Shown here piece after piece: positions 2,172-32,613 of a stretch of 47,815 bases of DNA. The notes beneath the pieces are model-generated. The model searched no databases, had not been told where the DNA came from, and was given only the letters and a program-made list of their open reading frames with translations. Every line of letters begins with the position of its first letter. Position 1 is the first letter of the stretch. The stretch covers positions 26,037 to 73,851 of the forward strand of contig JASEFT010000002.1 of NCBI GenBank assembly GCA_030018475.1. The letters run 5' to 3'. The stretch comes from Thermoplasmatota archaeon (lineage in GTDB: Archaea; Thermoplasmatota; JASEFT01). Made by a program: the position numbers and the translations under genes.

Positions 2172-2669
2172 ATGGAAAAGGATATTTTAAAAACGCTAGT
2201 AAAAGGTAACAGCTATTTAATAAAAGAGAAAAAGCCTGACAAAACATTCGAGCTTTTTAAGTTATTAATTAAAAATAAAATAGAGCCTTTCTGCATTGCC
2301 AGATTGCATCCTAAACATATCAAGTGGAAGTATAAAATAAAAGTAAAAAGTCTATGGCTTAGTAAAAAAGAATATAATTACTGCCTATCACCAACAGATT
2401 TAGGTGTGCTTGTTTCTACAGCTGAGAATTTTATTAAAAGTGCAAAAAATGGTGTGCTGTTAATTGAAGGGTTAGAATATCTCATTTTGAATAATGATTT
2501 CACCAAAGTTCTAAGAGCTGTAGCGGATCTAATTGAAAGCGTTATGGAAAGTAACTGCAGAATACTGTTGCCAATAGACCCTGACACATTAGATAGTAAA
2601 GAGCTGGCACTGCTTGAAAGAAATCTAGTGGTAATAGAAACTGAGGAAGAGGAAGAAAAGCTCCTATAA
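2172..2669 (+). CDS. DUF835-like archaeal protein (paralog 2)
   Basis: Paralog of 1710..2165, e.g. GNSYLIKEKKPDK...LLIEGLEYLILNNDFTKVLRAV...LALLERNLVVIE. Confidence 0.5.
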   Translation: MEKDILKTLVKGNSYLIKEKKPDKTFELFKLLIKNKIEPFCIARLHPKHIKWKYKIKVKSLWLSKKEYNYCLSPTDLGVLVSTAENFIKSAKNGVLLIEGLEYLILNNDFTKVLRAVADLIESVMESNCRILLPIDPDTLDSKELALLERNLVVIETEEEEEKLL

Positions 2670-3068
2670 CGAGAAGATATAGCCTTTGAAATCTATAGCG
2701 TCTTTTTTAAGTATCTCTATCTGTTTGCCGTATTCTGCTCTTTCCCTTTCACTCATATGCTTTTTGGCAATTTCTGCTACCCTCTCAATAACCTCTAACT
2801 TGGGCAGTAGTTTTTCAGCTTTCTCTACAGGCAGCTTGTGCTTTATAGCCAAGTCGCCCGCGACAGCTACTCTTAACCCCACGCTCTCCAAATACAGCAG
2901 AGCGTTTATTCTTATCAAGTCTTTTAGAGCTATCAGAATATCTTTCAAAAGCTCAGTTTCGTTACTCGACAATTTTTCATCACCGGAATAAAGAATACTT
3001 ATAAGAGCTGATAGATTTTGCTGTCCTAAAATTATAAATAGCGGTAAAGCTATGCTGTGAAAAAGCAT
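2664..3068 (-). CDS. hypothetical protein
   Basis: 134-aa ORF with no recognised motif. Its stop overlaps the convergent gene by a few nt. Confidence 0.35.
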   Translation of the reverse strand: MLFHSIALPLFIILGQQNLSALISILYSGDEKLSSNETELLKDILIALKDLIRINALLYLESVGLRVAVAGDLAIKHKLPVEKAEKLLPKLEVIERVAEIAKKHMSERERAEYGKQIEILKKDAIDFKGYIFSL

Positions 3069-4049: not shown

Positions 4050-4736
4050 ATGCTTAGAGACGCTGTTAAAGGATTAGATAGGTTGTTTGAAAAAGATATA
4101 CCTGAGGGGTTTATAATTCTAATTACAGGCACACCTGGCACACTCAAGTCAGGTTTTGTTCATCAAGTACTTAGTAACCATTTAGCGAGAGCGAAAAAAT
4201 TCGGTGTTTACGCTACACTTGAAGAGCCTAAAGAGAGCCATTTGCGTAATATGCGCTCTTTAGGTATAAAGAAAGTTGAGGGCTTAGAAATTTTCGATTA
4301 TTCTGATATCCGCAAAGAGTGGAAAGCAGAAGAAGAAACTTTAGATATGGTGAAAATAACTGAGGATATTATTGGTTTTTATAAAGAGAAGAAAGGCGAA
4401 GATTTTACTTGCTTTGCTCTAGATTCCCTTAACGCGCTCTACTCACTTGTAAAATCAACGAACCTAAGAAGCGACAGCTATCATTTCTTTACAGCGCTAA
4501 GAGAAAGTGGACTTACTTCTTTCATCACTCTAGAACTGCCAAAAGAGCCTGGCGAATACGCTCCAGAGTATTTTTTAGTAGACGGCGTTATTGAAGTCGG
4601 TGTTATTGAGACTAGAGAAGATGTTACTAGATATGTACAGATAAAGAAGATGCGCGCTGTAAAGCATTCTATGAAGAAACATCAGTTAGTAGTTGAAGAA
4701 GATGGCTTAGCAGTTTTAGGGCCTGTTTACGAGTAG
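4050..4736 (+). CDS. KaiC/RecA-superfamily ATPase-like protein with deviant P-loop (GTPGTLKSG)
   Basis: FIILITGTPGTLKSGFVHQVL lies at the KaiC Walker-A position but reads GxxGxxKS rather than GxxxxGK[ST]. Downstream hydrophobic strands are typical of the RecA fold (CFALDSLNALY). Paralogous to the N-domains of 5895 and 31746. Confidence 0.5.
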   Translation: MLRDAVKGLDRLFEKDIPEGFIILITGTPGTLKSGFVHQVLSNHLARAKKFGVYATLEEPKESHLRNMRSLGIKKVEGLEIFDYSDIRKEWKAEEETLDMVKITEDIIGFYKEKKGEDFTCFALDSLNALYSLVKSTNLRSDSYHFFTALRESGLTSFITLELPKEPGEYAPEYFLVDGVIEVGVIETREDVTRYVQIKKMRAVKHSMKKHQLVVEEDGLAVLGPVYE

Positions 4737-4808: not shown

Positions 4809-5495
4809 ATGGCTGAAATTTACGAAGACAAGCGCTGGGAACTGAAGCAAGGCGATAAAATATACCCTCATTTAACAACAGAAATATTGCAGAGATGGGT
4901 TGTAGAAGGAGTTGTTAGCGATGATGATCTTGTTAGAGAGGAGGGCGCACCACATTGGGAGAAGTTGAATGAGCTCAAAGAGTTCAAATTTCTGCTCTGG
5001 GCAAGAGAAAAAGAAGCTAAAGTACTGCAAAATATAGAGGAAGGTCATAGCTATATTATAAAAGAGAAAAAGCCTAGAAGAATTTTTGAAATATTGCAAA
5101 ATTTTGTATCTTTGGGCTATAGAGCGCTTTGTGTTACAAGAATCTATTATGAAGAAATCAGAGAAAAATACAAGCTTGGAAAAACAGACATTTTCTGGCT
5201 GAGTAAAGAAGAGCGCGAGAACTGTCTTAGCCCTACAGATTTGGGAAGGTTAGCGCATACAATTATAGAGTTCTTTAAACATACAAAAGATAGTATTTGT
5301 GCACTCGAAGGCTTAGAATATCTAATCACTCATAACGATTTCGAGAAGGTTTTAAGGCTTGTTGATGACCTTTCAGAGAAAACAGCTCTTAGCAAATCAA
5401 GACTTATCCTATCAGTAACTCCTGAAACGCTTGAGGAGAAACAACTTGCACTGCTAGAAAGAAATTTAGAATCTATAGAAGTAGAAGAGGAATAA
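4809..5495 (+). CDS. DUF835-like protein (paralog 3) with N-terminal GYF-like/DUF4339-like domain
   Basis: The C-terminal ~150 aa align with 1710 and 2172 (EGHSYIIKEKKPRR...ALEGLEYLITHNDFEKVLRLV...LALLERNLE). The N-terminal W...G...YP.....L..W...G.V..D.LV...G...W..L..L resembles small GYF-like domains. Confidence 0.5.
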   Translation: MAEIYEDKRWELKQGDKIYPHLTTEILQRWVVEGVVSDDDLVREEGAPHWEKLNELKEFKFLLWAREKEAKVLQNIEEGHSYIIKEKKPRRIFEILQNFVSLGYRALCVTRIYYEEIREKYKLGKTDIFWLSKEERENCLSPTDLGRLAHTIIEFFKHTKDSICALEGLEYLITHNDFEKVLRLVDDLSEKTALSKSRLILSVTPETLEEKQLALLERNLESIEVEEE

Positions 5496-5748
5496 AAACT
5501 CATCTAGAAAATAGAAAAATTTGCAATCAGATTTACCTACAATACTCAGAGAATAGAGGGATCTAAATTAACTTTAAGAGAAACTGCTGAGCTACAATAC
5601 ATCCATTCACAGATGGAAACGGAAGAATTTCGAGACTAATAATGAATATGCAAAACAAGAGATATTTAAAAGGAGTAAAGTTTCGAGCTCTGAAAGAAAT
5701 AGAGGTAATTGCTAAAACTTAGTATTTTGAAATTTAAAACAAATTTCG

Positions 5749-5763
5749 TATCGAATTTCGATA
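5749..5763. promoter_or_regulatory. 15-bp inverted repeat TATCGAA-T-TTCGATA (candidate operator, copy 1)
   Basis: Perfect 7-bp arms. Lies 130 bp upstream of the KaiC-like/PadR gene at 5895. Half-sites TATCGAA at 5874-5880 and TACCGATACCG at 5831-5843 are nearby. Confidence 0.4.
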
Positions 5764-5894
5764 TCAATCTAGAAGCACAAAATCCTTTTAGTACTACAAA
5801 ATTTTAAGTATTCCTAAGTCATTTCCGTAAGTTACCGATACCGTTTTAACGCAAATTACTAATAAAAAAATGGTATCGAAGAAGAGGGGAGAGA

Positions 5895-6911
5895 ATGAGA
5901 GAAATGGAAGAGGATCGAATCTCGTTATTGGCTGATAACAATATTTTGTTTCTCAACAAGCTTAAAAAAGGCGAAACTCTTTTGTTTCTATACGGTCAAA
6001 AAACTGAGAAGCATGAGCTTTTTAAAACATTCATAAAAAACGGCCTTGAAAATAATGAGTTCTGTCTCTATGCAAGTACAGAGAGCAACAAATGGCATCC
6101 CGAGTACTGTTTTAAAGAATGGATTGAAAAAGGTCGTCTCACTATCCTCAACCTCGAAAGAATAGGGAAAAGTGCTATGGCTGAGCTTGATAAAGAATTT
6201 AGAAATCTCTGTAGCGCAGCTATGAGTGGGAGCGAAAGCTGCAGATTACTTGCTGATTTCGCATCACTAATAAATAGGAGAAATATAGGATATGTGAAAG
6301 ACTTCGAGGAAAGCGTAATCAGAAAGTGCCAATATTCTCTTTCCACAAGATGGACTTCTACAAAATACAAATATAAAATTCCTACACGAAAGAACTTTCC
6401 GCTGAAAGCGATAACAGCTTTCATGCTAGGCTCTCTTGACGAGTACAATCTCAATCAACTTATATACCTCCATAATTATATATTAATTTCGGCTGATAAC
6501 GGCTCTATAGTGCTAACAGAAAACGCAAAATTGCCTGGCGATGAGAGCAGTATTACTGTCGTGCCTCAAGCAACTTTGGAAGAGTTTGTTAAGAACAATC
6601 TTGAAATTATTGTTTTGAGCATGCTCTCCGAGAAAGCACTCTGCGGCTACGATATTATAAAAGGAATAGCGCAAAAATATTATACTTTTTTGAGTCAAGG
6701 CACTGTTTATCCGTTACTCTATTCTTTGCAAGAGCGCGGCATTCTGAGCGTTGAGGCAAAGCAGAAATCGAAGCTTTACTCTCCAACCGAGAAGGGCATA
6801 GAAATAATAGAAAAGAAGCTTGATGATTTTATAAAAGCGCAAGAATATACGTTGGGCTCGCTAAAGCTAAAGAGGTGTGCTACTGCTGGGAGGATTACGA
6901 ATAAGCCTTAA
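5895..6911 (+). CDS. KaiC-like (P-loop-degenerate) domain fused to C-terminal PadR-type winged helix; candidate gvp regulator
   Basis: The N-domain LLFLYGQKTEKHELFKTF...CLYASTESN shows KaiC/RecA-like topology without GK[ST]. The C-terminus NLEIIVLSMLSEKALCGYDIIKGIAQKYYTFLSQGTVYPLLYSLQERGILS is a PadR wHTH. Confidence 0.55.
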   Translation: MREMEEDRISLLADNNILFLNKLKKGETLLFLYGQKTEKHELFKTFIKNGLENNEFCLYASTESNKWHPEYCFKEWIEKGRLTILNLERIGKSAMAELDKEFRNLCSAAMSGSESCRLLADFASLINRRNIGYVKDFEESVIRKCQYSLSTRWTSTKYKYKIPTRKNFPLKAITAFMLGSLDEYNLNQLIYLHNYILISADNGSIVLTENAKLPGDESSITVVPQATLEEFVKNNLEIIVLSMLSEKALCGYDIIKGIAQKYYTFLSQGTVYPLLYSLQERGILSVEAKQKSKLYSPTEKGIEIIEKKLDDFIKAQEYTLGSLKLKRCATAGRITNKP

Positions 6912-7183
6912 TCAGCAAACTTCCCGGAATTGAAATTTTTGTTAAAATCTTAGAGTAGCGATCAAAATATTTATATTTTCGAATTCCAAAACAAATTTCG
7001 AGTTTAGTTTAGATATAAATTTTAAGAAATAAGGTATATATTCTAAGATAAACTAAGGGATAATCGCACAGAAGCAAAGTTCTCTTGGAAGAGGATAAAT
7101 TTTTCGTTACGATGAAAAAACCTCTCCCCTAGCTCTCCTCTTTCAAGAGAGCTCATGCAAGTGCAGGAGGCGGAGAAGGAGAA

Positions 7184-7408
7184 ATGGTAACACAAAGCCC
7201 GGACGTATCAAGTCTAGCAGAAGTATTGGATAGAATACTAGACAAAGGCATCGTTGTAGACGCATGGGCAAGAATCAGTTTGGTAGGCATTGAGCTACTG
7301 ACGATAGAGGCAAGAGTTGTTGTAGCAAGTGTAGATACATTCTTGCACTATGCAGAAGAGATTACAAAGATAGAGCAAGCAGCTATCGGCGCACCTGCAA
7401 CTGCTTAG
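7184..7408 (+). CDS. gvpA: gas vesicle structural protein GvpA (copy 1)
   Basis: [69 protein letters not shown] is the canonical GvpA core. An SD-like AGGAGGCGGAGAAGGAGAA lies upstream. Confidence 0.95.
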
Positions 7409-7423
7409 ACGAAAAAATCCTTT

Positions 7424-7446
7424 TCTCCCGATTTTTTTTAGGGAGA
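7424..7446 (+). terminator. hairpin TCTCCC-(GATTTTTTTTA)-GGGAGA with T8 tract downstream of gvpA1
   Basis: The stem is 7424-7429/7441-7446 and the T8 run is 7432-7439. Oligo-T is the usual archaeal termination signal, so this suggests a partial terminator between the two gvpA copies. Confidence 0.35.
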
Positions 7447-7537
7447 CGCAAGGGGTTTAGGTAAGTAAGAAGATAAAAATAGTTGGCAGGGTAGGAGCTA
7501 TCTGGCTCCGCCCTTTGAATGGAGGTGAAGAAGAAGA

Positions 7538-7762
7538 ATGGTAACACAATCACCAGACGTATCAAGCCTCGCAGAAGTGCTCGACAGAATACTTGACAAA
7601 GGCATCGTTGTAGACGCATGGGTAAGAATCAGCTTGGTAGGCATTGAGCTACTAACGATAGAGGCAAGAGTTGTTGTAGCAAGTGTAGATACATTCTTGC
7701 ACTATGCAGAAGAGATTACAAAGATAGAGCAAGCAGCTATCGGCGCACCTGCAACTGCTTAA
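7538..7762 (+). CDS. gvpA: gas vesicle structural protein GvpA (copy 2, A28V variant)
   Basis: The 74-aa protein is identical to copy 1 except WARISL to WVRISL. The 5' third differs at synonymous sites, while the 3' ~165 nt are nearly identical to copy 1. Confidence 0.95.
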
Positions 7763-7764
7763 AC

Positions 7765-7786
7765 CTCCTCGGAGCATAAAAGGAGG
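7765..7786 (+). promoter_or_regulatory. hairpin pairing CCTCC (7765-7769) with the Shine-Dalgarno GGAGG (7782-7786) of the downstream GvpC-like gene
   Basis: The 12-nt loop lies immediately after the gvpA2 stop. It could occlude the SD of ORF 7795. Confidence 0.3.
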
Positions 7787-7794
7787 TAGAGAAA

Positions 7795-8469
7795 ATGCCG
7801 GAAACAGTAGAAGAACTAACAACGACTTATTCGCGAGCTGAACTAGACGAAATGGCAGAAGAGCTAGGCTTGGTTCCAGAAGACTACCCTAATAAAGCCG
7901 CAATAGCAAAGGCTATTATTGCAGCAAGAAAAGCCAAACCGCCTGCTGTTAAAATACCCCCGAAAGTAGGCAAGAAAGGCGTGTACGCAAAGATAAAGGC
8001 CGCAGAAAAGTTCACTGCAAAAATGGACGCAGACGTAAAGGCACAAATTGGAGAAAACGTAGAAGCAGTCAAAAAGATAGAAACTGGTATTAGGGAAGTC
8101 GGGGGAAAGATAGAAGAAAAAGTTGATGACATTCAGTCAGCTGTAGACACACAGATAAAAGAGAACCAAGCTAAGGTTGCAGAGATAGGCAAAGATATCA
8201 AAGCACAGCAAAGGGAGAACATAGCGGCAGTCAAAAAGATAGAGACTGGCATAAGTGAAGTAACAAAGGCGAACGAAGCAAAAGTCAAGCAAATCCAGGC
8301 AGACATAGGAAAGCTGGTTAAGGAAAATCTAAGCGCAGTCAAAAAGATCAGTGAAGGTATAAAAGAGCAAGCAAGAGAAAACAAAGAGGCAGTTGAAGCG
8401 TTCGAACCAAAGGTTAGGGAATTGCAGACTGCTAACAAGAAATACGTAGACGACTTCTACTATGGCTGA
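7795..8469 (+). CDS. GvpC-like repeat protein (amphipathic coiled-coil repeats; SAP/Rho-N-like N-terminal motif; C-terminal KKYVDDFYYG)
   Basis: It occupies the gvpC position of the A-C-N-O order. There are three repeats of EN(V/I/L)xAVKKI(E/S)(T/E)GI.E. The N-terminus SRAELDEMAEELGLVPEDYPNKAAIAKAIIAA resembles SAP/Rho_N helix-hairpin motifs. An SD AGGAGGT sits 7 nt upstream. Confidence 0.5.
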   Translation: MPETVEELTTTYSRAELDEMAEELGLVPEDYPNKAAIAKAIIAARKAKPPAVKIPPKVGKKGVYAKIKAAEKFTAKMDADVKAQIGENVEAVKKIETGIREVGGKIEEKVDDIQSAVDTQIKENQAKVAEIGKDIKAQQRENIAAVKKIETGISEVTKANEAKVKQIQADIGKLVKENLSAVKKISEGIKEQARENKEAVEAFEPKVRELQTANKKYVDDFYYG

Positions 8470-8500
8470 GCCATAGTATCTCTTTTTTTATTTTATTTTC
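8459..8500 (+). terminator. intrinsic-terminator-like hairpin ACTATGGC-TGA-GCCATAGT followed by T-rich tract
   Basis: Perfect 8-bp stem at 8459-8477 spanning the stop codon, then TCTCTTTTTTTATTTTATTTT. Confidence 0.5.
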
Positions 8501-8523
8501 GGAAAAAAAGAAAAGGGTTTAGA

Positions 8524-8685
8524 ATGACGACTATTGAAGAGATCAAAGCTGGGATTCTGGAAAAAGGTATCGAAAGAGAGATAGGAATCAAAAAAATACG
8601 AGCTGAGCTACAAAAGAAGAGAAAAGAAATAGAAGAAGGCAGAAAGAGATATAGAGCTAAATTTTGTCTAAAAACTAAAAAATAA
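8524..8685 (+). CDS. small K/E-rich ORF (53 aa), unannotated in track
   Basis: MTTIEEIKAGILEKGIEREIGIKKIRAELQKKRKEIEEGRKRYRAKFCLKTKK. It lies between the terminator and the gvpN promoter and contains a half-site GGTATCGAAAG. It is below the 60-aa track cutoff. Confidence 0.2.
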   Translation: MTTIEEIKAGILEKGIEREIGIKKIRAELQKKRKEIEEGRKRYRAKFCLKTKK

Positions 8686-8703
8686 TTTTTATTCCGATTT
8701 ATG

Positions 8704-8733
8704 TATCGAAATTCGAAACGAAAAGTTATAAAT
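8704..8733 (+). promoter_or_regulatory. gvpN1 promoter: inverted repeat TATCGAA-A-TTCGAAA (8704-8718) abutting purine-rich BRE-like CGAAAAG and TATA-like TTATAAAT (8726-8733)
   Basis: The TATA box is ~35-40 nt upstream of the ATG at 8769. The palindrome (one mismatch) directly flanks the BRE/TATA, which suggests an operator. Confidence 0.45.
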
Positions 8734-8768
8734 ACCCTACTACTTAACCTTATTTCGAAGGTGATTAA

Positions 8769-9779
8769 ATGGGATATGTAAGCATACATCAAAGGAAAGT
8801 GAGAGGTGCATCGGTTCATGACACTCTCGAAACAAAAAGAACCGAAGAGGCAATTAGGGAACAGGAAGTGGAACGCCCTAAACTTGATAGAGAAGTTGTT
8901 GAGGCGACTTATCTAACTCCAGAAGTTGAGAACTTTGTCGAAACACCCCAAGTAAAAAAGATCGAGAGCAGGATAGAACTTTGGCTCAAGATCGGCTACC
9001 CAGTTCACATAATTGGGCCGACAGGTTGCGGGAAGACAACTATAGCGATGCATGTAGCAAGTAAGTTAGGAAGACCAGTTGTGTGGCTAAATGGAGATGA
9101 ATACGTGACAACAACAGATTTTATTGGCGGCTATTCTCAAGTAGAGGTTGAAAGCTTGAGGGACAAATTTATCCATAACGTGTTCAAAAACAAGGATATA
9201 CTAAAAGCAGACTGGGTGGATAACCCACTAACACTTGCATGCAAATACGGCTATACTTTGGTTTACAACGAGTTCTCCAGGACAAGACCAGAAGCAAATA
9301 ACATCTTGTTGTCTGTTTTGGAGGAAGGCATACTAGAACTGCCGACAAAGTTCGGTGAGGAAAGATATGTGCGTGTACATCCAGATTTTAATATGATAGT
9401 GACAAGCAACTCGGTTGAGTACGCAGGTGTGCATCGCCCGCAGGATGCGCTGCTAGACAGGATGATAGGCATATATATGGACTTTTATGATTTCGATACT
9501 GAGGTAGAAATAGTCAAAGCACATACGGGTATAGCAACAAAAGAGGCGAGAAAGGTAGTAAGTGTTGTTAGGAAGCTACGGGAGAAACTAGAAGAAGCAG
9601 AGAAACCTGGTACAAGAGCAGGTATAATGATTGCATATGGGTTACAGGGGCTAGATGGCTATAACAAAGAAGATTTTGAACAGCTTTGTATTGATGCATT
9701 AGCAACGAAAGCAAAAGGGCAGAAAGATTTGGATAAAAAGATCAAATTGGTAAAAGAGGTGGTTAAAGAAATATTTTAG
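8769..9779 (+). CDS. gvpN: GvpN AAA+ ATPase (copy 1)
   Basis: Walker A IIGPTGCGKTT, Walker B hydrophobic-LVYNEF, sensor region SNSVEYAGVHRPQDALLDRM. Position is after gvpA-A-C as in haloarchaeal gvpACNO. 336 aa. Confidence 0.9.
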   Translation: MGYVSIHQRKVRGASVHDTLETKRTEEAIREQEVERPKLDREVVEATYLTPEVENFVETPQVKKIESRIELWLKIGYPVHIIGPTGCGKTTIAMHVASKLGRPVVWLNGDEYVTTTDFIGGYSQVEVESLRDKFIHNVFKNKDILKADWVDNPLTLACKYGYTLVYNEFSRTRPEANNILLSVLEEGILELPTKFGEERYVRVHPDFNMIVTSNSVEYAGVHRPQDALLDRMIGIYMDFYDFDTEVEIVKAHTGIATKEARKVVSVVRKLREKLEEAEKPGTRAGIMIAYGLQGLDGYNKEDFEQLCIDALATKAKGQKDLDKKIKLVKEVVKEIF

Positions 9780-9790
9780 GAGGTAAAAAT

Positions 9791-10168
9791 ATGGCCGAGG
9801 AAAAAAGAGTTGAAGCTGTAATTAAGGAGGCAAAAATTAGGAAGATAGTCGATCTGTGGAGTCACAAACCAAGAGGATTGCAGTTTAATGATACAGATGC
9901 TCTGATAGTGACTGCAGAAACCGAGGCTGGAAAGATAATAAATGAAACGTTCTACTTCTGTCTAAAACCAGATGGAACGTTTAATATAGATACTGTAAGC
10001 AAGAATGGCAGCCATGTGAGGAGACAAAGACTTGCTAGTTTCCTAACACACTACAAGATCACAGACACACCAAAAAGCTACAATATAAAGGAAGGAGTAG
10101 AAAAATGGAAGGGGAAAAAGATAGAAATTGTCCCATACAAAGATGAGGGATATATCTATATTCCATAG
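9791..10168 (+). CDS. hypothetical gvp-associated protein (paralog of 21825..22421)
   Basis: The C-terminus RRQRLASFLTHYKITDTPKSYNIKEGVEKWKGKKIEIVPYKDEGYIYIP parallels RRKRLESFLKHYKITDKIEGYSIPERMKEWKKKKVKVVTYKGQDQIFIP of ORF 21825. SD AGGAGGT upstream. Confidence 0.5.
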   Translation: MAEEKRVEAVIKEAKIRKIVDLWSHKPRGLQFNDTDALIVTAETEAGKIINETFYFCLKPDGTFNIDTVSKNGSHVRRQRLASFLTHYKITDTPKSYNIKEGVEKWKGKKIEIVPYKDEGYIYIP

Positions 10169-10179
10169 GAGGTAATAAA

Positions 10180-10449
10180 ATGGTAACAGCAGAAATTAGT
10201 AAAATAGGAAAACAAAGCCTCTCCACAATAGGGAGTCTTTTAAACAAAAAACCTGAAAGCGTGGTAAGCGTTAGCAAAGAAGGAAAGGAATGGAAAGTCC
10301 TCGCTGAGGTATTGGAAAGAAGGGCGGTGCCTGATACGCAGGACATTCTTGGGAGATATGAGATGCGCTTGAATGAAGAAGGCGAGCTCTTGGGCTACAA
10401 GCAGGTAATGACAAGGAGGAGAGCGGATCTAATAGTAGAAGAAGAGTAG
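10180..10449 (+). CDS. gvpO: GvpO-like protein
   Basis: The 89-aa sequence VSVSKEGKEWKVLAEVLERRAVPDTQDILGRYEMRLNEEGELLGYKQVMTRRRADL fits my recollection of the GvpO family pattern (W.V..EVVER..VPDT.D.L..YE..LD..GEL.GY.R..RY.R). Position follows gvpN as in gvpACNO. SD GGAGGT upstream. Confidence 0.5.
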   Translation: MVTAEISKIGKQSLSTIGSLLNKKPESVVSVSKEGKEWKVLAEVLERRAVPDTQDILGRYEMRLNEEGELLGYKQVMTRRRADLIVEEE

Positions 10450-10484
10450 ATAAATATTAGAATAACTGAGAAGAGGTGAATGTA

Positions 10485-10613
10485 ATGGGAAAAGAAAGGC
10501 CGATAACAAAGTATGACCTGAGGGTTGCAAAAAGTAAGCGTCATCTAGATGCGCAGTCAAAAAGATGGAGTGCAAAGTATCAAAGAAGACCCAGGATTTG
10601 CAGAGGAGAGTAG
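10485..10613 (+). CDS. small basic ORF (42 aa), unannotated in track
   Basis: MGKERPITKYDLRVAKSKRHLDAQSKRWSAKYQRRPRICRGE with SD-like GAGAAGAGGTGAA upstream. Its stop abuts the next ORF start. Speculative. Confidence 0.2.
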   Translation: MGKERPITKYDLRVAKSKRHLDAQSKRWSAKYQRRPRICRGE

Positions 10614-10880
10614 GTGACAAATATGCCATCAGTTAAAGAATACACAAAACGGCTTGAGAAAGCAATTAAAGAAATAGGAGCAGGTATTGAAGAAAAATCT
10701 AAAATAATAGACAAAGGAGTCAAGGAAATACAGGCAGGAATGGAAGAAACATCCAGGCGTGTAGAGAGAGGAGTCAAGGAAATACAGGCAGGGATGGATG
10801 AAACCGCTAAAAGAGTTGAAAAAGGCGTTGAGGAATTGCAAACTGATAAGAAGAAGTTTACAAAAGCGTTCTGGGGCTAG
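10614..10880 (+). CDS. short coiled-coil repeat protein with C-terminal KKFTKAFWG motif (GvpC-like/phasin-like family member)
   Basis: Repeats KGVKEIQAGMEETSRRVE / RGVKEIQAGMDETAKRVE / KGVEELQ. The track start is GTG at 10614; ATG at 10623 (MPSVKEY) is an alternative. The C-terminal motif is shared with 7795 and 26940. Confidence 0.45.
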   Translation: MTNMPSVKEYTKRLEKAIKEIGAGIEEKSKIIDKGVKEIQAGMEETSRRVERGVKEIQAGMDETAKRVEKGVEELQTDKKKFTKAFWG

Positions 10881-10893
10881 ATAAGTAAAATAA

Positions 10894-11931
10894 ATGGGGG
10901 TAATAGGAATGTATGAAAAAGATAGATATGATATAACAGGAAGAAAAACAAGAGGCGGAGTAAGATACCATAAAACCATGGAAGAAAAAGAAATGGAAAG
11001 AAGAGAAGCAGAACTCAAGGCTATGCAGCTTGAGAAAACCAGGCAAGAAATTGAGGAGCAATTTCTAACGCCTAAGGCAGAGGTATTCGTTGAAACCGAA
11101 GAAATCAAAGACCTGGAAGAAAGAGTAAAAACTTGGATCGGCCTCGGCTATCCAGTTCACATAATAGGACCAACAGGTTGCGGGAAGACTATGTTAGCAG
11201 TCCACGTAGCGAGTCAGCGTGGAAGACCAGTAGTATGGCTGAATGGTGATGAGGAGATGACAACAACACACCTTGTTGGTGGATACGGACAATACTTGGA
11301 GGAGCACTATCATGACAGATTCATTCATAATGTCTATAAAAGCAGAGAAATGGTTGAACCTGGTTGGGTAGATAATCCATTGACAATTGCATGCAAATAT
11401 GGCTATACATTAATCTATAATGAGTTTTCCAGAGCTAAACCAGAGGCAAATAATGTTTTACTTTCTGTGTTAGAGGAAAAAATACTTGAACTGCCAACAA
11501 AGTTCGGTGAGGAAAGATATATCAAAGTACATCCGGACTTTGCTGCAATACTAACCAGCAACTCAATAGAATACGCAGGGGTACACGCCCCGCAGGATGC
11601 ATTGCTAGACAGAATGATAGCTTTGCATATGGGCTATTACAGTTTCGATACCGAGGTAGAGATCGTCAAAGCCCAAACAGGCATACCTGAGAAGGAAGCA
11701 AAAAAAGTAGTAAAGGTGGTGAGAGCAATAAGAGACAAGCTTCCAGAGGCAGAGAAGCCAGGGTCGAGAGCGTGTATACAGGTTGCTCAAGGACTGCAAG
11801 CGTGGAACGGTTACAGTAAGAAAAACTTCGAAAAAGTATGCATTGATGTGCTTGGATGCAAGATGAAAGGGCTAGACGAGTTATCTAAGATGGAGAAACT
11901 GATAAAAGAAGCGCTTGACAAGCTCACATAA
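10894..11931 (+). CDS. gvpN: GvpN AAA+ ATPase (copy 2)
   Basis: Walker A IIGPTGCGKTM. Clearly paralogous to 8769..9779 over its whole length (GLGYPVHIIGPTGCGKT...PVVWLNGDE...DNPLT.ACKYGYTL.YNEFSR.KPEANN.LLSVLEE.ILELPTKFGEERY..VHPDF). 345 aa. Confidence 0.9.
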   Translation: MGVIGMYEKDRYDITGRKTRGGVRYHKTMEEKEMERREAELKAMQLEKTRQEIEEQFLTPKAEVFVETEEIKDLEERVKTWIGLGYPVHIIGPTGCGKTMLAVHVASQRGRPVVWLNGDEEMTTTHLVGGYGQYLEEHYHDRFIHNVYKSREMVEPGWVDNPLTIACKYGYTLIYNEFSRAKPEANNVLLSVLEEKILELPTKFGEERYIKVHPDFAAILTSNSIEYAGVHAPQDALLDRMIALHMGYYSFDTEVEIVKAQTGIPEKEAKKVVKVVRAIRDKLPEAEKPGSRACIQVAQGLQAWNGYSKKNFEKVCIDVLGCKMKGLDELSKMEKLIKEALDKLT

Positions 11932-11962
11932 CAAACTGTTGTTCTAACAGGCTTATAGGACG

Positions 11963-12778
11963 GTGAAGATGAAGGACGAGGTGGAAAGACGTAAAGAGAA
12001 AAGGGAAAAGATAAGAGCAAATAAGAGAAAACAGAGAGAACTTGTAGAAGCTCATCAGGAAAAAATTAGAGAAGAAATCAAACCATACCTCACGAGAAGG
12101 AAGAGGGCGCACGATTTAAAAGTAGAGGAATTGCAAAAAGATATAAAAGAAAAAGGCAGAGTGCAAAAGGAAGAGGCTAGAGAAAAAGTAAAAAAGCAGC
12201 AGGAAAGGCAGAAAGCAAAAGTAGAGGCTCAGAAAGAGAAGATAAGACTGCAGCAGATTAAGCAAAGAGAAACTGTAGCAGCGCAAATGGAAAAACAGCA
12301 AGCAAGGCTTAAACCAATAATTGAAAGAAATAGGGAAATAGTAGAAGACAGAAAACTCACTAGTAGATTAGATGAGATAAGAAGAGGAAGATTCCTTTTT
12401 ACTTATTCAACCATGCCATCAAAAAAGTTTGCAGACTCAACAACCTATTCTCCAAAGCATTCAACAGTACCAGATCCTGAGTTTAGAGAAAAAACAACTT
12501 ACTCACCAAAGTACACAACTGTACCAGATCCAAAATTTGCAGAAAAAACAAATTTCTCGCCCAAATTCAAGACAGTACCAAAACTGGAGTTTGCGGAGAA
12601 AACAACTTATTCACCCAAGCACTCAACTGTGCCTAAGCCGGAATTTGCAGAGAAGACAACACATTCAACAGTGCCGAGCATAGATTTTGCGCACTCTACA
12701 CACTACTCGATCGTAGAGTTTGAGAGAGTAGCTGATGATAAGGTAAAAACTGAGAAAGAGCGAAAATGGATGGAATAA
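11963..12778 (+). CDS. K/E/R-rich coiled-coil protein with C-terminal 18-aa tandem repeats (TTYSPKHSTVPDPEFxEK x4-5)
   Basis: The N-terminal ~150 aa are almost entirely K/E/R/Q (charged single alpha-helix or coiled-coil type). The C-terminal repeats are TTYSPKHSTVPDPEFREK / TTYSPKYTTVPDPKFAEK / TNFSPKFKTVPKLEFAEK / TTYSPKHSTVPKPEFAEK / TTHSTVPSIDFAHS. A DNA tandem repeat lies at ~12440-12700. Confidence 0.5.
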   Translation: MKMKDEVERRKEKREKIRANKRKQRELVEAHQEKIREEIKPYLTRRKRAHDLKVEELQKDIKEKGRVQKEEAREKVKKQQERQKAKVEAQKEKIRLQQIKQRETVAAQMEKQQARLKPIIERNREIVEDRKLTSRLDEIRRGRFLFTYSTMPSKKFADSTTYSPKHSTVPDPEFREKTTYSPKYTTVPDPKFAEKTNFSPKFKTVPKLEFAEKTTYSPKHSTVPKPEFAEKTTHSTVPSIDFAHSTHYSIVEFERVADDKVKTEKERKWME

Positions 12779-12779
12779 G

Positions 12780-13202
12780 ATGACAGTACTTGACCCAACA
12801 AGAGGTAAAAAGAAAGGCTCTAAAATAATGCCTGAGATGGAAAGATTGATTAGGCAGCAGGAACGCATAAAAAAGCAGACTGAAAGACTTGCAGCGCAAA
12901 AACTAAAAGGATTGCACGGGCGAGCAGAACTCACTGCTTCAAAATTGACACGTGGCGAGCTAGCGCGAAAGCTAGCGGAACAGAAAAGGCTTAATGCACA
13001 GGATAAAAGGATTCTAAAACAGTACGAGGCTGAGAGAGAAAGAGCGCTTGCTGCGAGGCTACGAGGAGAGGCAGTGACTGGGATAGATTTAACAGAAAGG
13101 GCAAAGGTTTCAAGAGAGCTTAGATGGACTGGAAAATGGAAGAGAAGAAAGGCAAAAATGGATGCCGTAGCAAGAAAATATGTGATTAAAGCAGAAAAAT
13201 AA
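12780..13202 (+). CDS. basic R/K-rich helical protein (possible GvpI-like)
   Basis: 140 aa, strongly basic (RQQERIKKQTERLAAQKLKG...). The start is 1 nt after the upstream stop. The GvpI analogy rests only on basic composition. Confidence 0.4.
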   Translation: MTVLDPTRGKKKGSKIMPEMERLIRQQERIKKQTERLAAQKLKGLHGRAELTASKLTRGELARKLAEQKRLNAQDKRILKQYEAERERALAARLRGEAVTGIDLTERAKVSRELRWTGKWKRRKAKMDAVARKYVIKAEK

Positions 13203-13223
13203 AATTTAAAGGAGGTGGAAAAA

Positions 13224-13361
13224 ATGGTGAGTATTAGCCCCGGGATGAAAACTTACGGCGATTTGGGTAGAAAGCTCGATGCCAGAAAACCCTTGCTAGA
13301 ATCAAAAATGAGGGCAAGAATAGAAAAGTCAAAGTTAAAATGGCAAAGGAGAATTAGATAA
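13224..13361 (+). CDS. small basic ORF (45 aa) with strong SD, unannotated in track
   Basis: MVSISPGMKTYGDLGRKLDARKPLLESKMRARIEKSKLKWQRRIR. AAAGGAGGTGG lies 6 nt upstream of the ATG. Confidence 0.3.
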   Translation: MVSISPGMKTYGDLGRKLDARKPLLESKMRARIEKSKLKWQRRIR

Positions 13362-13380
13362 GTTCCAATAAGTGATTTAA

Positions 13381-13689
13381 ATGGATCAAGCAAAATACGA
13401 ACGGATAAAGGCAGCACATTTAGCAAGAGATAGGCTGAAGAGACAAAAGAAGATAGGTCGCTCTGGGTATCTAGCTAGAAAAATTGCAGCAAGAAGAAAA
13501 TATTTCAAACAGAAAAGAAAAGCACTTGATAGAAATTTTGAGGGAAAAAAGCAAGCGAGAGTAGGTAGAGAACATGGTAAATGGAACAGGAAATCAGCTA
13601 AATGGCTGAGCAAGGGCGCAAAATGGACTGGCAAATGGGAGCATAGAGCTGCAAAATTTAGTGCTAGAATGGAAAAACTGTTTGGCTAG
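13381..13689 (+). CDS. basic K/R-rich protein with repeated KW/GKW motifs
   Basis: The 102-aa sequence ...GREHGKWNRKSAKWLSKGAKWTGKWEHRAAKF has a composition like haloarchaeal GvpI. Compositional analogy only. Confidence 0.4.
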   Translation: MDQAKYERIKAAHLARDRLKRQKKIGRSGYLARKIAARRKYFKQKRKALDRNFEGKKQARVGREHGKWNRKSAKWLSKGAKWTGKWEHRAAKFSARMEKLFG

Positions 13690-13744
13690 AGGCGTCTAGT
13701 GTTTCTCAAAAGCTACTAGGAGAGCGAAGAGGCTACCTAAAAGA

Positions 13745-13759
13745 TATCGAAATTCGATA
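13745..13759. promoter_or_regulatory. 15-bp inverted repeat TATCGAA-A-TTCGATA (candidate operator, copy 3)
   Basis: Perfect 7-bp arms, 21 nt upstream of the ATG of the GvpJ/M-like gene at 13780. It overlaps the position where a TATA box would sit if the transcript is leaderless. Confidence 0.4.
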
Positions 13760-13779
13760 CGAACTTGGATATTGGATAA

Positions 13780-14175
13780 ATGGTAAATGTAAGACCTGCA
13801 AGTGAAGGCTTAAAAGAAGTTTTGGATAGGATACTAGATAAAGGAATTGTTATTGATTTGAATGCAAGAGCCTGCCTTAGCGATTTTGAGCTTTTAGGCA
13901 TAAACGCAATTGTTATTTTGAGCTCGTTCAAAACAGCTGCAAAGATCGGCATGGATTTTCCAGAGGGGACGAAAATGGATACTCCTGCATGGAAGGATTT
14001 ACTGTCAAAGCAGCCATGCCCGCTCTGCGGCAAGGAGTCGAGAACAAAAGAATTAAAAGAAGAAGGCTGCCCTTGGTGCGGCTGGAATTACAGACCTAAG
14101 TATAAAGAAGATAAGAAAACTTTCGAAAAAGAGCGAAAATATAGGTATGGGAAGGGAGGGAAATGGAGGAAATAG
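13780..14175 (+). CDS. GvpA-family (GvpJ/M-like) protein with C-terminal CxxC...CPWCGW zinc ribbon
   Basis: GvpA core [48 protein letters not shown], then CPLCGKESRTKELKEEGCPWCGWNY. Confidence 0.8.
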   Translation: MVNVRPASEGLKEVLDRILDKGIVIDLNARACLSDFELLGINAIVILSSFKTAAKIGMDFPEGTKMDTPAWKDLLSKQPCPLCGKESRTKELKEEGCPWCGWNYRPKYKEDKKTFEKERKYRYGKGGKWRK

Positions 14176-30262: not shown

Positions 30263-31753
30263 TTAGCTCACCTCTTTTCTTCCGACTTCTATACCTTTTG
30301 CACCGATCTTGACGCATACAAAACTATAGGGCGGCCAGGGCCCGGAATATTTAAGTATCAGATCCTTATATCTTTCGCTTAGTTGCCCAATTTCTTTAGA
30401 GAAGTCTTTTATTTTATGCTTGGGGACTAGGTAAGAGGCGTTTAGAATCAGCCTATCGCTAAACAATCTGCCTCTGACCGCTTCCGCAGCTTTTTTAGTG
30501 AGTGTATTGAAAATTTTTTCTCCCTCATTCTTAAGCTTTATCTTCTTCTTATCATCTAAAGATTTCACGGCCTGCTTAGGCACGATAGCTTTTACGCCCA
30601 GTTCGACTTTGTTATCTATCAATTTTGTACATTCTTTTAGAGCCTTATAGGCTTTTTTTATTAACACCCTTAGGATTTTCGGATTCTTGAAAACCTGTCC
30701 AAACGCAGCAGGAACTATAGAATACTTTTCTAACACTTTTCTTACAACTCCTTCGTGCGTTCTGGAATATTCTTCGGTCACAGAATAGTCTTTCACAGGC
30801 GTATCGCTAACAACTGCTGCTAAATCTTTGTAATTAATTGTATAGACCCTGCTTCCATCGCCTATTCCAATATTTCCAAACCTTATTTCTTTTTCAGGTG
30901 CAGGTATTATGCCGTAGAGATATTTACCTTCCGGGACTTTTAGTTTGAGTTTTCTTTCAGCTTCTGATTTAGCATAGCTTGCGAGCTCTACAGCTTTTGG
31001 TATTAGTTTGATAGTTTTATCATATTTTGCAGCACTAAATACTTTCTTTATTTCAGCGAACGATTTCTCCACTTCTTGCATTATCTCAGGAACATATTTT
31101 AGCGCTTTTGCTTCCCTAGCTTCTTCAACTGCTTTTCTCAGACTTGTCAATGCATTCTTTGCCTTTTTCCTCTTTTCTTCTACTTTCTTCTTCCGTACCT
31201 CTTCCAGTTTAAGCTTCCTTTCTTCTTCAAGCCTTCTTTCTTCCTCTAATTTCTTCTTCCGCTCAGCTTCTCTCTTCTTTCTCGCTCTTTCAAGTTTTTT
31301 CTTCCTTTCTTCCTCAAGTAATCTTTTCTCCTCTAATTTTTTTCTAAGCTCAGCTTCGCGCCTCTTTCTCTCGGCTTCCTTCCTTCTCTCCTCCACTTCC
31401 AAAACCCTGCGGTATGCAGAATTGAGCTCTTTTAACTGCCTAAAATGCTCTGCAAGAATACAAAGCCAAGAGCCCTCTTGGCCTTTAACCAAAAAAGGTC
31501 TATAGCCTGGAAAAGAGCCTCTACCGATAATCTTTACACTCTCAAGAGTTTTGCCAGCGAGTTCAGGTAAAGACTTGCACAGCTTGTTTATTTTGCTCAG
31601 TTTATCAAAATCTTCAGTTCTAATATAGAGATAGAGACCTCTCTGTCCACTTACTGAAAAAGGTTCTTCTCCACTTCTCTTACCAATAATTTCAAGCTTT
31701 TCAAGAGGCTTTAATTTTATCCTAGCCATTCCCTCACCAGTTGCTTTACTCAA
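30263..31753 (-). CDS. GvpF/L-family protein with N-terminal tandem novel domain and E/R/K-rich coiled-coil linker
   Basis: The C-terminal 250 aa are GvpF/L (YLYGIIPAPEKEIRFGNIGIGDGSRVYTINYKDLAAVVSD...YSGPWPPYSF). The N-terminal 115 aa are the duplicated domain shared with ORF 23578. The middle ~90 aa are an ERK repeat. Confidence 0.7.
   Translation of the reverse strand: MSKATGEGMARIKLKPLEKLEIIGKRSGEEPFSVSGQRGLYLYIRTEDFDKLSKINKLCKSLPELAGKTLESVKIIGRGSFPGYRPFLVKGQEGSWLCILAEHFRQLKELNSAYRRVLEVEERRKEAERKRREAELRKKLEEKRLLEEERKKKLERARKKREAERKKKLEEERRLEEERKLKLEEVRKKKVEEKRKKAKNALTSLRKAVEEAREAKALKYVPEIMQEVEKSFAEIKKVFSAAKYDKTIKLIPKAVELASYAKSEAERKLKLKVPEGKYLYGIIPAPEKEIRFGNIGIGDGSRVYTINYKDLAAVVSDTPVKDYSVTEEYSRTHEGVVRKVLEKYSIVPAAFGQVFKNPKILRVLIKKAYKALKECTKLIDNKVELGVKAIVPKQAVKSLDDKKKIKLKNEGEKIFNTLTKKAAEAVRGRLFSDRLILNASYLVPKHKIKDFSKEIGQLSERYKDLILKYSGPWPPYSFVCVKIGAKGIEVGRKEVS
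31195..31400. repeat. ~105-bp imperfect tandem duplication within the E/R/K linker-coding region of ORF 30263..31753
   Basis: Two consecutive ~35-codon units encode LEEKRLLEEERKKKLERARKKREAERKKK and LEEERRLEEERKLKLEEVRKKKVEEKRKK. Confidence 0.4.
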
Positions 31754-32561
31754 CTGTCTTTCTATTCAGCTCTACAGACTGCAAAAACTTACTCAAAAAC
31801 TTGCTGGCTTGCACATGCTCGTTAAGTATACCTCTTATTTTAGGCTCTGCACCTTTTGGAGGTTTGTAGAGCTTTGTTTTAACTTTATACTCGCATTTCA
31901 GCAAGCCTTTTTCTTCTAGCGAATGGAGCAGGGGATAAATTGTGCCAGGGCTTAGCAAGATGTTAAATTCTTTATGCACAGTCTTTATTATATCTGTACC
32001 GCACATAGGCTTGTTAAGTATTAATGCTAGGACGATAGTCTCAAGCTCGTTTTTAACAAATCTCTCTATAAACTCGTCTGAGATATTTGACTTGTCAAGC
32101 GTTTCCGAAGAAAGAACAGTGATATCGCTAGCTGTAAGCATGAGTTTGTCATGGCATTCCACTAACTCTTTTATAATCTTAGGGTCGAGCTTAGAGGCGT
32201 CATAGGTGCATAACATAAGCTGGTTTTTGCCTGCTCTCGCAAGACTCTTCTCTATTTTCAAATGCTCCTCTTTATCTATGGAGCCTGCATCTACGAGAAT
32301 TCTCAGTTTGTCGTTAAAGTTAATTCTACCAAGCCCACTAGGCTTGATAATAGAAATATCGAAATTCAATCCTTTAAGCTCTTGAGATACTGCATCAGGT
32401 TCGTCATTAGTTATATAAACTACCTTTTCATCTTTAGCTGCAGAGCCTATGAAAGGCGCATGAATTGCATATTTGTTCACATCAGGTGTATACAAATGCA
32501 AAGTATGCTTTGCTATAGCAGAAAGAATTGTATTTATCGCCGATATTTTGCCTTCTTCCAT
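31746..32561 (-). CDS. KaiC-like (P-loop-degenerate) domain fused to C-terminal PadR-type winged helix; candidate gvp regulator (paralog of 5895..6911)
   Basis: C-terminus NELETIVLALILNKPMCGTDIIKTVHKEFNILLSPGTIYPLLHSLEEKGLLKCEYK. The N-domain has RecA-like strand/helix alternation without GK[ST]. Confidence 0.55.
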   Translation of the reverse strand: MEEGKISAINTILSAIAKHTLHLYTPDVNKYAIHAPFIGSAAKDEKVVYITNDEPDAVSQELKGLNFDISIIKPSGLGRINFNDKLRILVDAGSIDKEEHLKIEKSLARAGKNQLMLCTYDASKLDPKIIKELVECHDKLMLTASDITVLSSETLDKSNISDEFIERFVKNELETIVLALILNKPMCGTDIIKTVHKEFNILLSPGTIYPLLHSLEEKGLLKCEYKVKTKLYKPPKGAEPKIRGILNEHVQASKFLSKFLQSVELNRKTVE

Positions 32562-32613
32562 TTATAATCACTTCTATTTTTGTTGCATAAGTTAATTTCT
32601 ATATATAGATTTC

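Follow-up and report, generated by a model that had tools for sequence, protein, structure and literature searches.

What controls the gas-vesicle (gvp) genes of archaea that are not halophilic? Gas-vesicle regulation is understood in haloarchaea (GvpD/GvpE) and in some bacteria; our literature search returned no paper on regulators of the widespread gvp clusters of methanogens and uncultured anaerobic archaea. The question is raised here by a 47,815-nt stretch of DNA from a Thermoplasmatota archaeon (contig JASEFT010000002.1 of assembly GCA_030018475.1, positions 26,037 to 73,851; 'the window' below), which represents a large archaeal gas-vesicle island (G+C content ~38%). A sequence-only reading of this DNA had pointed to a 15-bp inverted repeat, TATCGAA-N-TTCGATA, as a candidate operator at three gvp promoters, with three PadR-type proteins of the island as plausible binders. 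We found that the repeat belongs to a 20-bp element conserved across several archaeal phyla at the promoters of gvpN, of the padR-gvpF/L-gvpG unit and of gvpA, while the surrounding DNA is not conserved. Judged by sequence and context, this 20-base box is very probably a switch site for a cluster-encoded regulator that controls gas-vesicle formation; the regulator is probably of the PadR type.

The repeat is strongly over-represented in the window. A scan with TATCGAANTTCGATA at up to two mismatches gave four matches against 0.27 expected, a number reached in none of 100 shuffles: 5749-5763 (no mismatches), 8704-8718 (one), 13745-13759 (none) and 32357 (two). The first three are the copies listed by the sequence-only reading, which are thereby confirmed; the fourth lies inside an open reading frame (ORF) and is probably due to chance. 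Aligned with their flanks, the sites share an element that is longer than the palindrome and asymmetric (TATCGAAATTCGAwACGAA). The shared unit is the 20-mer TATCGAAnTTCGAwACGAAA, in which ACGAAA is joined to a palindrome of 15-17 bp, (G)TATCGAA-N-TTCGATA(C); the 15-bp inverted repeat is present as described, but the element actually shared is 20 nt long and lacks its symmetry. The 20-mer TATCGAANTTCGANACGAAA, again at up to two mismatches, has four sites in the window; a set of 30 Markov shuffles gave 0.0. The four good copies all lie in intergenic DNA of the gvp island, with none in the 14 kb of non-gvp DNA of the window, and their flanks are unrelated to each other. The gvpN2 gene has no copy, and other promoters of the window, e.g. 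those of the stand-alone 76-aa PadR protein (PadR76) and of the KaiC-like gene, have none either. The 8-mer half-site GTATCGAA occurs nine times against 0.81 expected, two of these occurrences (9492 and 11644) being paralogous coding positions in gvpN1 and gvpN2; the TATCGAA half-sites quoted earlier are indeed present, at 5874 and 8568. Pentamers TCGAA/TTCGA have a 2.6-fold higher density in the intergenic DNA of the window than in its coding DNA.

The four copies (Table 1) are set in different contexts. Site 2 stands beside the B recognition element (BRE) and TATA box of gvpN1, the gene type most consistently preceded by the box; a Shine-Dalgarno sequence GGTGA precedes the gvpN1 ATG at 8769. 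The 'degenerate version' previously noted near 32612-32635 is real and better than claimed: it is site 4, which lies upstream of the gene of a 271-aa MEDS-PadR protein (PadR271), the first gene of the padR-gvpF/L-gvpG unit, and its location makes autoregulation probable. The assignment of the repeat to three gvp promoters needs two corrections: in the register of the 20-mer, site 1 is on the minus strand and directed away from gene 5895, and a promoter at site 3 is tentative, since no TATA box follows the site, 20 nt before the ATG. A TATA-like sequence after site 3, GATATTGG, was considered as a promoter and ruled out, as it stands only 10 nt before the ATG at 13780 and orthologues share the N-terminus of the gvpJ/M protein from residue 1 onwards; the same conservation upholds the ATG at 13780.

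Site 1 with its BRE/TATA predicts a minus-strand transcript from near 5708, antisense into the DUF835 gene 4809-5495. On the minus strand from 5700 to 5496, downstream of the site, there are only small ORFs of 31-33 aa, with no recognisable gene and no Rfam family. A reversed degenerate box with BRE/TATA was also found upstream of homologues of the 338-aa KaiC-like-PadR protein encoded at 5895 (PadR338) in loci L018, L037, L052, L068 and L070; there it faces a divergent gene for a 102-aa protein of the winged helix-turn-helix (wHTH) type (6530-6838 in L018), a gene absent from the window.

Conservation was assessed in loci L003, L004, L005, L008 and L083, which were fetched by GvpN similarity alone (58-75% amino-acid identity), with no reference to the motif. 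In the two relatives from the genome collection, metagenome-assembled genomes of an Aenigmatarchaeota (L003) and a Hadarchaeota (L004) member with 58% GvpN identity each, the 11-nt core TCGAANTTCGA occurs exactly once, <80 nt upstream of gvpN. The Hadarchaeota copy, TATCGAATTTCGAAACGAAAAACTATAAAT, is near-identical to site 2, including BRE and TATA, while the remaining intergenic DNA is unrelated. The box also precedes gvpN in L005, from Methanocellales, and in L008, from Methanoperedens. In Altiarchaeales L083 the TATA box of gvpA is preceded by a perfect palindrome and, 25 nt further upstream, by a second copy; in L083 and L003 the palindrome is retained without the CGAAA unit. Methanobacterium L006 has a degenerate copy only, at gvpA, and the gvp clusters of Methanothrix L080 and Methanolobus L082 have no motif.

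In an anchored comparison of 13 gvpN upstream regions, information content is concentrated on the 20-mer (including the BRE) and the TATA box that follows; a moderately conserved T-run upstream is probably the terminator of the preceding unit, and nothing else is conserved. The 20-mer plus TATA is found upstream of gvpN in 12 loci (L004, L005, L012, L018, L025, L037, L039, L052, L068, L070, L079 and L085), and TATCGAAyTTCGACACGAAA-ttaATATAAAA, orthologous to site 4, before the PadR271 orthologue in five (L029, L031, L032, L060 and L077). The gvpA promoters of loci containing PadR338 carry a distinct bipartite box, acTTTCGAAtTcCAAAACA-N13-TTCGAGAAAAAA-TATA (tccCTTTAAAAGG), related to the 20-mer; the version in the window spans 6977-7030, and the box is conserved in L004, L012, L018, L037, L052, L068 and L085. 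This box may bind with lower affinity, or it may serve the paralogous PadR protein. The claim that the repeat is a candidate operator of gvp promoters is thus well supported by phylogenetic footprinting, in the loci fetched by GvpN similarity as well as by the distribution in the window and in metagenomes.

Two loci show other repeats. Bathyarchaeia L009 contains rearranged half-sites (TTCGATAC...GTATCGG) in repeated promoter modules; the module gttttcagTTTTCGAyACAAnnTTnGTATCrGCTTTTTGAATATTACTTA, with half-sites in everted order, occurs at ~8885-8935, ~9900-9950 and 7303, which suggests an evolved operator variant. The divergent region between the response-regulator operon and the gvp genes of L082 (7700-7800) has TTGAAAC/GTTTCAA repeats, which may play the corresponding part for the short PadR+KaiC pair in Methanosarcinales clusters.

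A scan of the metagenome collection for the exact pattern returned 69 loci; matches obtained in this way say nothing on variability within the 20-mer but do show where it is located. Nineteen of the loci are in gvp clusters: 18 were identified by tblastn with Gvp proteins of the window, and the remaining one, L077, is a truncated PadR271 promoter. All 19 matches share the strand of gvpN, the PadR271 gene or gvpF/L and precede that gene. In the 18 loci the gene immediately downstream is gvpN (13 loci; inferred for L042, where gvpN is off the contig), a PadR271 orthologue (four) or gvpF/L (one), and L077 provides a fifth PadR271 promoter. An A/T-rich TATA-like box lies 2-4 nt past the box in each case (e.g. 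ctATAAAT, taATATAAAA or ctAAATAAG). The other 50 matches fall in long open frames of higher-GC contigs (several of these are one conserved gene), AATTCGA-type satellites and eukaryote-like DNA; outside such sequences almost all matches are in gvp clusters. The same pattern had two matches in the whole viral collection. One metagenome contig, L061 (1360 bp, GC 33%), has several copies of tttcgTATCGAAnTTCGATAcgaaa in both orientations in low-complexity eukaryote-like sequence and is probably a satellite that shares the motif by coincidence.

The sites fall into two promoter architectures. In class 1 the palindrome is followed by ACGAAA, a gap of 2-4 nt and the TATA box; this class includes the gvpN and padR271 promoters, gvpF/L in L038, gvpA in L083 and, reversed, site 1 of the window. 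ACGAAA is in the BRE position at most sites, and the palindrome abuts the BRE with fixed spacing. In class 2 the box is located 17-24 nt before the start codon, with the Shine-Dalgarno sequence between, and a TATA-like sequence (TTTTAAAC, CTTAAAAC or TTTAAATG) is found 13-16 nt upstream of the palindrome. Members of class 2 are site 3 and L012 before gvpJ/M, L031, L032 and L060 before the long gvpF/L gene and L008 before gvpN; L025, the closest relative with gvpJ/M1, has a degenerate copy at the class 2 position, retaining the right half only. At site 3 the box lies either between an upstream TATA box and the transcription start or within an operon transcript; class 2 boxes probably overlap the transcription start.

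Which protein could bind the box? Among the ORFs scanned with Pfam and NCBIfam profiles, no DNA-binding domain was recognised in the island other than the three PadR domains. The presence of three such domains, predicted earlier, is borne out: all have the PadR fold and score above the PF03551 gathering score of 27 bits (Table 1). PadR338 matches solved PadR structures by sequence, and its structure model has a predicted PadR wHTH and a C-terminal helix. PadR338 and PadR271 are paralogues with 35% identity over the C-terminal 150 aa, and their N-terminal domains have a RecA/KaiC-like fold without nucleotide-binding motifs. The family around PadR338 is small; its more distant receiver-PadR relatives of Methanomicrobiales type are not in gvp clusters and have no motif nearby, only the KaiC-like/MEDS-PadR subgroup being linked to gvp. 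Orthologues of PadR271 are present in L003, L006, L008, L009, L029-32 and L060. A gene for a MEDS-PadR or KaiC-like-PadR protein is located within a few kb in 13 of the 16 motif-bearing loci of at least 5 kb, not all of these loci being independent. The box precedes the PadR271 gene in six loci (the window, L029, L031, L032, L060 and L077), the usual signature of autoregulation. From these sequence data we infer that the binder is one or more of the cluster PadR proteins with a KaiC-like or MEDS domain and a PadR wHTH.

With moderate confidence, then, we read the repeat as the recognition site of a sequence-specific dimeric transcription regulator of the gvp regulon in a horizontally spread, non-halophilic type of archaeal gvp cluster, the putative binder being a PadR protein. 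Several observations weigh against this. Most metagenome instances are exact-match retrievals, so the apparent invariance of the 20-mer is partly a matter of ascertainment. Site 1 points away from any gene. Altiarchaeales L083 has perfect palindromes and no PadR within -10/+8.6 kb, and L004 and L025 show no PadR on their shorter contigs; conversely, L080 and L082 encode a short PadR protein (45% identical to the wHTH of PadR338) beside a KaiC-like gene and have no motif. The PadR recognition helix (LSQGTVYPLLYSL / LSPGTIYPLLHSL) is near-invariant across the PadR copies compared, even in clusters without the motif, and is therefore not diagnostic. The half-site (G)TATCGAA is not the TGT-Nx-ACA of characterised PadR/MarR sites; TGT is seen only as the left flank at gvpN sites, without a matching ACA. 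Finally, the core promoters beside the box look strong (ACGAAA + TATAAAT), which argues against the need for an activator.

The element can be compared with several known systems. The upstream activating sequence (UAS) of GvpE is 20 nt long, has two 8-nt portions separated by 4 nt and adjoins the BRE, closeness to which is essential for activation (PMC4390858). Like the UAS in the PA and PD promoters of p-vac and mc-vac, the box is ~20 nt long, sits directly beside the BRE/TATA of gas-vesicle promoters with tight BRE spacing and occurs at more than one promoter of the cluster, including the operon of the regulator (for the box, of the candidate regulator). Its sequence and symmetry are unrelated, however, as the box has an inverted repeat with a 1-nt spacer; its candidate binder is a PadR wHTH protein whereas GvpE is leucine-zipper-like, and activation is a proposal in the present case. 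The gvpDE genes are specific to haloarchaea, and methanogen gvp clusters lack them (PMC9501494); neither GvpD nor GvpE had a match among the 40 ORFs scanned in the window. The island resembles the pair of GvpE and its P-loop NTPase antagonist GvpD in that DNA-binding regulators have RecA/KaiC-type domains as partners; in 5895 and 31746 the two are fused, and 4050 and the DUF835 genes encode such domains separately. However, there is no sequence match to GvpD, the KaiC-like domains have no canonical Walker A and a functional link is speculative.

PadR/MarR proteins bind palindromes of 20-25 bp as dimers, e.g. TGT-N8-ACA for Bacillus subtilis PadR and TGT-N10-ACA for hsRosR (PMC7145548). The box is like these operators in being a palindrome in the ~15-25 bp range of wHTH dimer sites, which are often located in the regulator's own promoter; it is unlike them in the half-site (GTATCGAA, not TGT/ACA), in the archaeal BRE/TATA context and in the candidate proteins, where the PadR domain is not stand-alone but C-terminal to a KaiC/RecA-like pseudo-ATPase or MEDS domain. 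For archaeal regulator motifs such as the Thermococcales glycolytic motif TATCAC-N5-GTGATA (TrmBL1/Tgr) or the SurR site, the position relative to BRE/TATA decides between activation and repression. The box shares with the glycolytic motif the TATC...GATA ends and the location upstream of BRE/TATA or between TATA and start codon, but differs in spacing, inner bases and regulon, and the island has no TrmB-family or SurR gene. The element thus resembles the GvpE UAS in its architecture and a PadR operator in its symmetry, and it fails the defining features of both (the UAS sequence and form with GvpE; TGT-Nx-ACA). It appears to be a transcription-factor site coupled to the archaeal core promoter. 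The literature search gave no paper that links either PadR proteins or this sequence with gas vesicles, and the motif strings returned only primers and satellites.

How might such a site work? The outer half-site cores, GTATCG and CGATAC, are ~11 bp apart, a distance suited to a winged-helix dimer placed in two successive major grooves, and PadR/MarR proteins bind palindromes of 20-25 bp. A PadR protein binding the box in the promoter of its own gene would be autoregulated. At class 1 sites the bound regulator could stabilise TFB/TBP and thus activate transcription; this outcome is slightly favoured, at about even confidence, because, as with the GvpE UAS, the position of the site is tied to that of the BRE, and the tandem upstream copies in L083 fit a UAS. 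Repression by occlusion of the BRE is somewhat less probable, and other outcomes take up the remainder. PadR proteins are typically repressors, and through its third CGAA unit the site may extend into the BRE. At class 2 sites a regulator bound over the transcription start would probably act as a repressor or roadblock.

The same cis-element might instead be bound by a regulator that is not a PadR protein, such as another small wHTH protein, an unrecognised DNA-binding Gvp accessory protein or a host factor. This is unlikely, yet it would account for the two palindromes of L083 with no PadR within 18.7 kb and for the Methanosarcinales clusters that have PadR without the motif, and there are conserved ORFs without known domains (of 271, 140, 102, 125 and 53 aa) that co-vary with the motif. 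The 102-aa wHTH encoded divergently beside PadR338 was rejected as a general binder: it occurs in a single clade, and neither the window nor most loci have it. If a host factor were the binder, it would need to be present in at least six phyla, and the box before padR271 in six loci is what is expected of an autoregulated factor. It is less probable still that the box is a composite core-promoter element read by the basal machinery, its three CGAA/TTCG units forming a BRE, in extended or duplicated form, with strong or bidirectional recruitment of TFB. CGAAA resembles the archaeal BRE consensus, the third unit, ACGAAA, is at the BRE position with fixed TATA spacing, and site 1 works as a reversed BRE/TATA arrangement. 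Such an element is nevertheless made unlikely by the other island promoters that do without the box (PadR76, the KaiC-like gene) and by the palindromes of L083 and L003 that persist without the CGAAA unit; moreover, the palindrome appears to be restricted to gvp clusters in phyla whose basal factors differ, and class 2 sites have no TATA box after them.

An inverted repeat may also form a hairpin, and at gvpN the box follows a T-run that ends the upstream unit, from gvpA to the 53-aa ORF; a terminator or 5'-untranslated element acting in RNA is nonetheless very improbable. The predicted hairpins of the four sites (-3.8 to -8.1 kcal/mol, z -0.01 to -1.26) are no better than those of shuffled sequences, the arms are only 1 nt apart, at class 1 sites the TATA box comes only after the repeat, and in variant copies (site 4, L005) one arm changes without compensation; the whole window has no Rfam match at the gathering threshold. 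We reject the RNA hairpin on these grounds. Hardly any weight is left for a non-functional relic, i.e. a copied promoter module or the end of a mobile element: the window does have two gvpN genes, and copying of promoter modules inside the island is conceivable, but gvpN2 has no copy of the box, and the box is conserved where GvpN is only 57-65% identical and the neighbouring non-coding DNA is randomised. Conservation across phyla with unrelated flanks, of the four window copies as well, excludes this explanation.

A PadR-bound regulatory site admits a broader interpretation, which we offer tentatively and with less than even confidence. The box may be the point at which a self-contained regulatory circuit, one that moves horizontally between phyla along with the gvp cluster, meets the DNA. 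A signal of energy state or some other cellular signal would be sensed jointly by PadR fusions to KaiC/RecA-like pseudo-ATPase (MEDS) domains and by the separate KaiC-like and DUF835 proteins, which would switch at least four gvp promoters through one BRE-coupled 20-bp site, with a positive effect where it abuts the BRE and a negative one over the transcription start.

Table 1. Copies of the box, associated promoter elements and genes of the gas-vesicle island. Genes were called by Pfam and NCBIfam profile searches (40 ORFs scanned); single numbers are the coordinates by which genes are designated.
Feature	Position	Strand	Sequence or evidence	Remarks
Site 1, perfect 20-mer	5744-5763 (palindrome 5749-5763)	-	TATCGAAATTCGATACGAAA	132 nt upstream of KaiC-like-PadR gene 5895; points away
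TATA-like box	5732-5739	-	TTTTAAAT	4 nt past site 1
Site 2, archetype	8704-8723 (palindrome 8704-8718; BRE-like ACGAAA 8718-8723)	+	TATCGAAATTCGAAACGAAA	Directly upstream of gvpN1 promoter
TATA box of gvpN1	8726-8733	+	TTATAAAT	2 nt past 20-mer
Site 3	13745-13764	+	TATCGAAATTCGATACGAAC	20 nt before gvpJ/M-like ATG; class 2; TATA-like CTAAAAGA just upstream, no good TATA after
Site 4	32610-32629	-	TATCGGAACTCGACACGAAA	Two mismatches to 20-mer; followed by TATATATA (32600-32607); 48 nt before ATG of MEDS-PadR gene 31746-32561
Degenerate box	6977-6996	+	TTTCGAATTCCAAAACAAAT	Five mismatches; followed by TTTCGAG and TATA-like GATATAAAT; upstream of gvpA1
Half-site, isolated	5873-5880	+	GTATCGAA	15 nt before ATG of KaiC-like-PadR gene
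Half-site, isolated	8567-8574	+	GTATCGAA	Inside 53-aa ORF 8524-8685; significance uncertain
DUF835 genes	1710, 2172, 4809-5495	+ (4809-5495)	Pfam	
PadR76, stand-alone PadR wHTH, 76 aa	3067-3297	+	Pfam PadR, 38.2 bits	Candidate binder 3; same subfamily as the other two
KaiC-like gene	4050-4736	+	Pfam	
PadR338, 338 aa, C-terminal PadR domain	5895-6911	+	Pfam PadR, 36.7 bits	Candidate binder 1; RecA/KaiC/ArlH-like N-domain without Walker A, PadR wHTH, long C-terminal helix
gvpA, two genes	7184, 7538		Pfam/NCBIfam	
224-aa coiled-coil protein gene	Upstream of 8458-8488 hairpin			Possibly GvpC-like
gvpN1	8769-9779	+	Pfam AAA_5	Identical protein P0001 named GvpN by NCBI and assigned there to a Candidatus Thermoplasmatota MAG
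gvpO	10180		Pfam/NCBIfam	
gvpN2	10894		Pfam/NCBIfam	
gvpJ/M-like, first	13780-14175	+	Pfam Gas_vesicle; NCBIfam GvpJ-like	Downstream of site 3
gvpJ/M-like, second	14163		Pfam/NCBIfam	
gvpK, two gvpF/L (one fused to DnaJ), Hsp70, GvpA-PH fusion	Window		Pfam/NCBIfam	
gvpG, long gvpF/L		-	Pfam/NCBIfam	
PadR271, 271 aa, MEDS+PadR	31746-32561	-	Pfam MEDS, 35.2 bits; PadR, 35.4 bits	Candidate binder 2

Other genes of the island (Table 1) bear on signalling. The KaiC-like gene 4050-4736 and the DUF835 gene 4809-5495 may encode partners of the PadR proteins in signalling. In the KaiC-like protein, GTPGTLKS replaces the canonical Walker A GxxxxGK[ST], and every KaiC/RecA-like domain of the island may be non-catalytic. 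PadR+KaiC gene pairs and operons of a response regulator, a histidine kinase and DUF835 stand beside the gvp clusters of L080 and L082, operons of receiver, PAS-histidine kinase and DUF835 genes adjoin gvpA (association loci L080, L082, L006 and L083), and 510-aa PadR-DUF835 fusion proteins exist (P0150 and P0151). These fusions, pairs and operons point to a multi-part signalling module around archaeal gvp clusters.

Five ORFs of the window have no family match: 11963-12778 (271 aa), 12780-13202 (140 aa), 13381-13689 (102 aa), 9791-10168 (125 aa) and 8524-8685 (53 aa). They are 45-68% identical across motif-bearing gvp clusters, are absent from the Methanosarcinales type and look like uncharacterised accessory Gvp proteins. 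A 134-aa ORF on the minus strand (2664-3068), also without a family match, overlaps the start of PadR76 head to head; it is probably spurious, since PadR76 has its own TATA box, AAATTATAAATA, ~30 nt upstream. A scan of the window for sigma-70 promoters and terminators was uninformative, as it is for an archaeon, except for one hairpin. At 8458-8488, 3' of the gene of the 224-aa coiled-coil protein, a hairpin TACTATGG(C)-N3-6-(G)CCATAGTA is followed by a T-run. The same hairpin is conserved in L008 (~85-125), L080 (~9945-9975) and L082 (~9935-9965), including Methanosarcinales clusters without the palindrome, and it may be a terminator or attenuator dividing gvpA-level from gvpN-level expression.

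The box would define a regulon composed of gvpN, the padR-gvpF/L-gvpG unit, gvpJ/M and probably gvpA. A conserved site together with a few candidate binders encoded next to it makes gas-vesicle regulation in non-halophilic archaea directly testable. The box is also a clear case of a putative transcription-factor site that keeps a constant register to the archaeal BRE in several phyla, and it could provide a portable promoter/operator module for transplanting gvp clusters as acoustic reporters. If the mobile-circuit interpretation is true, the circuit would be the functional equivalent, though not a homologue, of GvpD/GvpE in haloarchaea. It would also be the first regulatory logic for the gas vesicles of archaea that are anaerobic and not halophilic.

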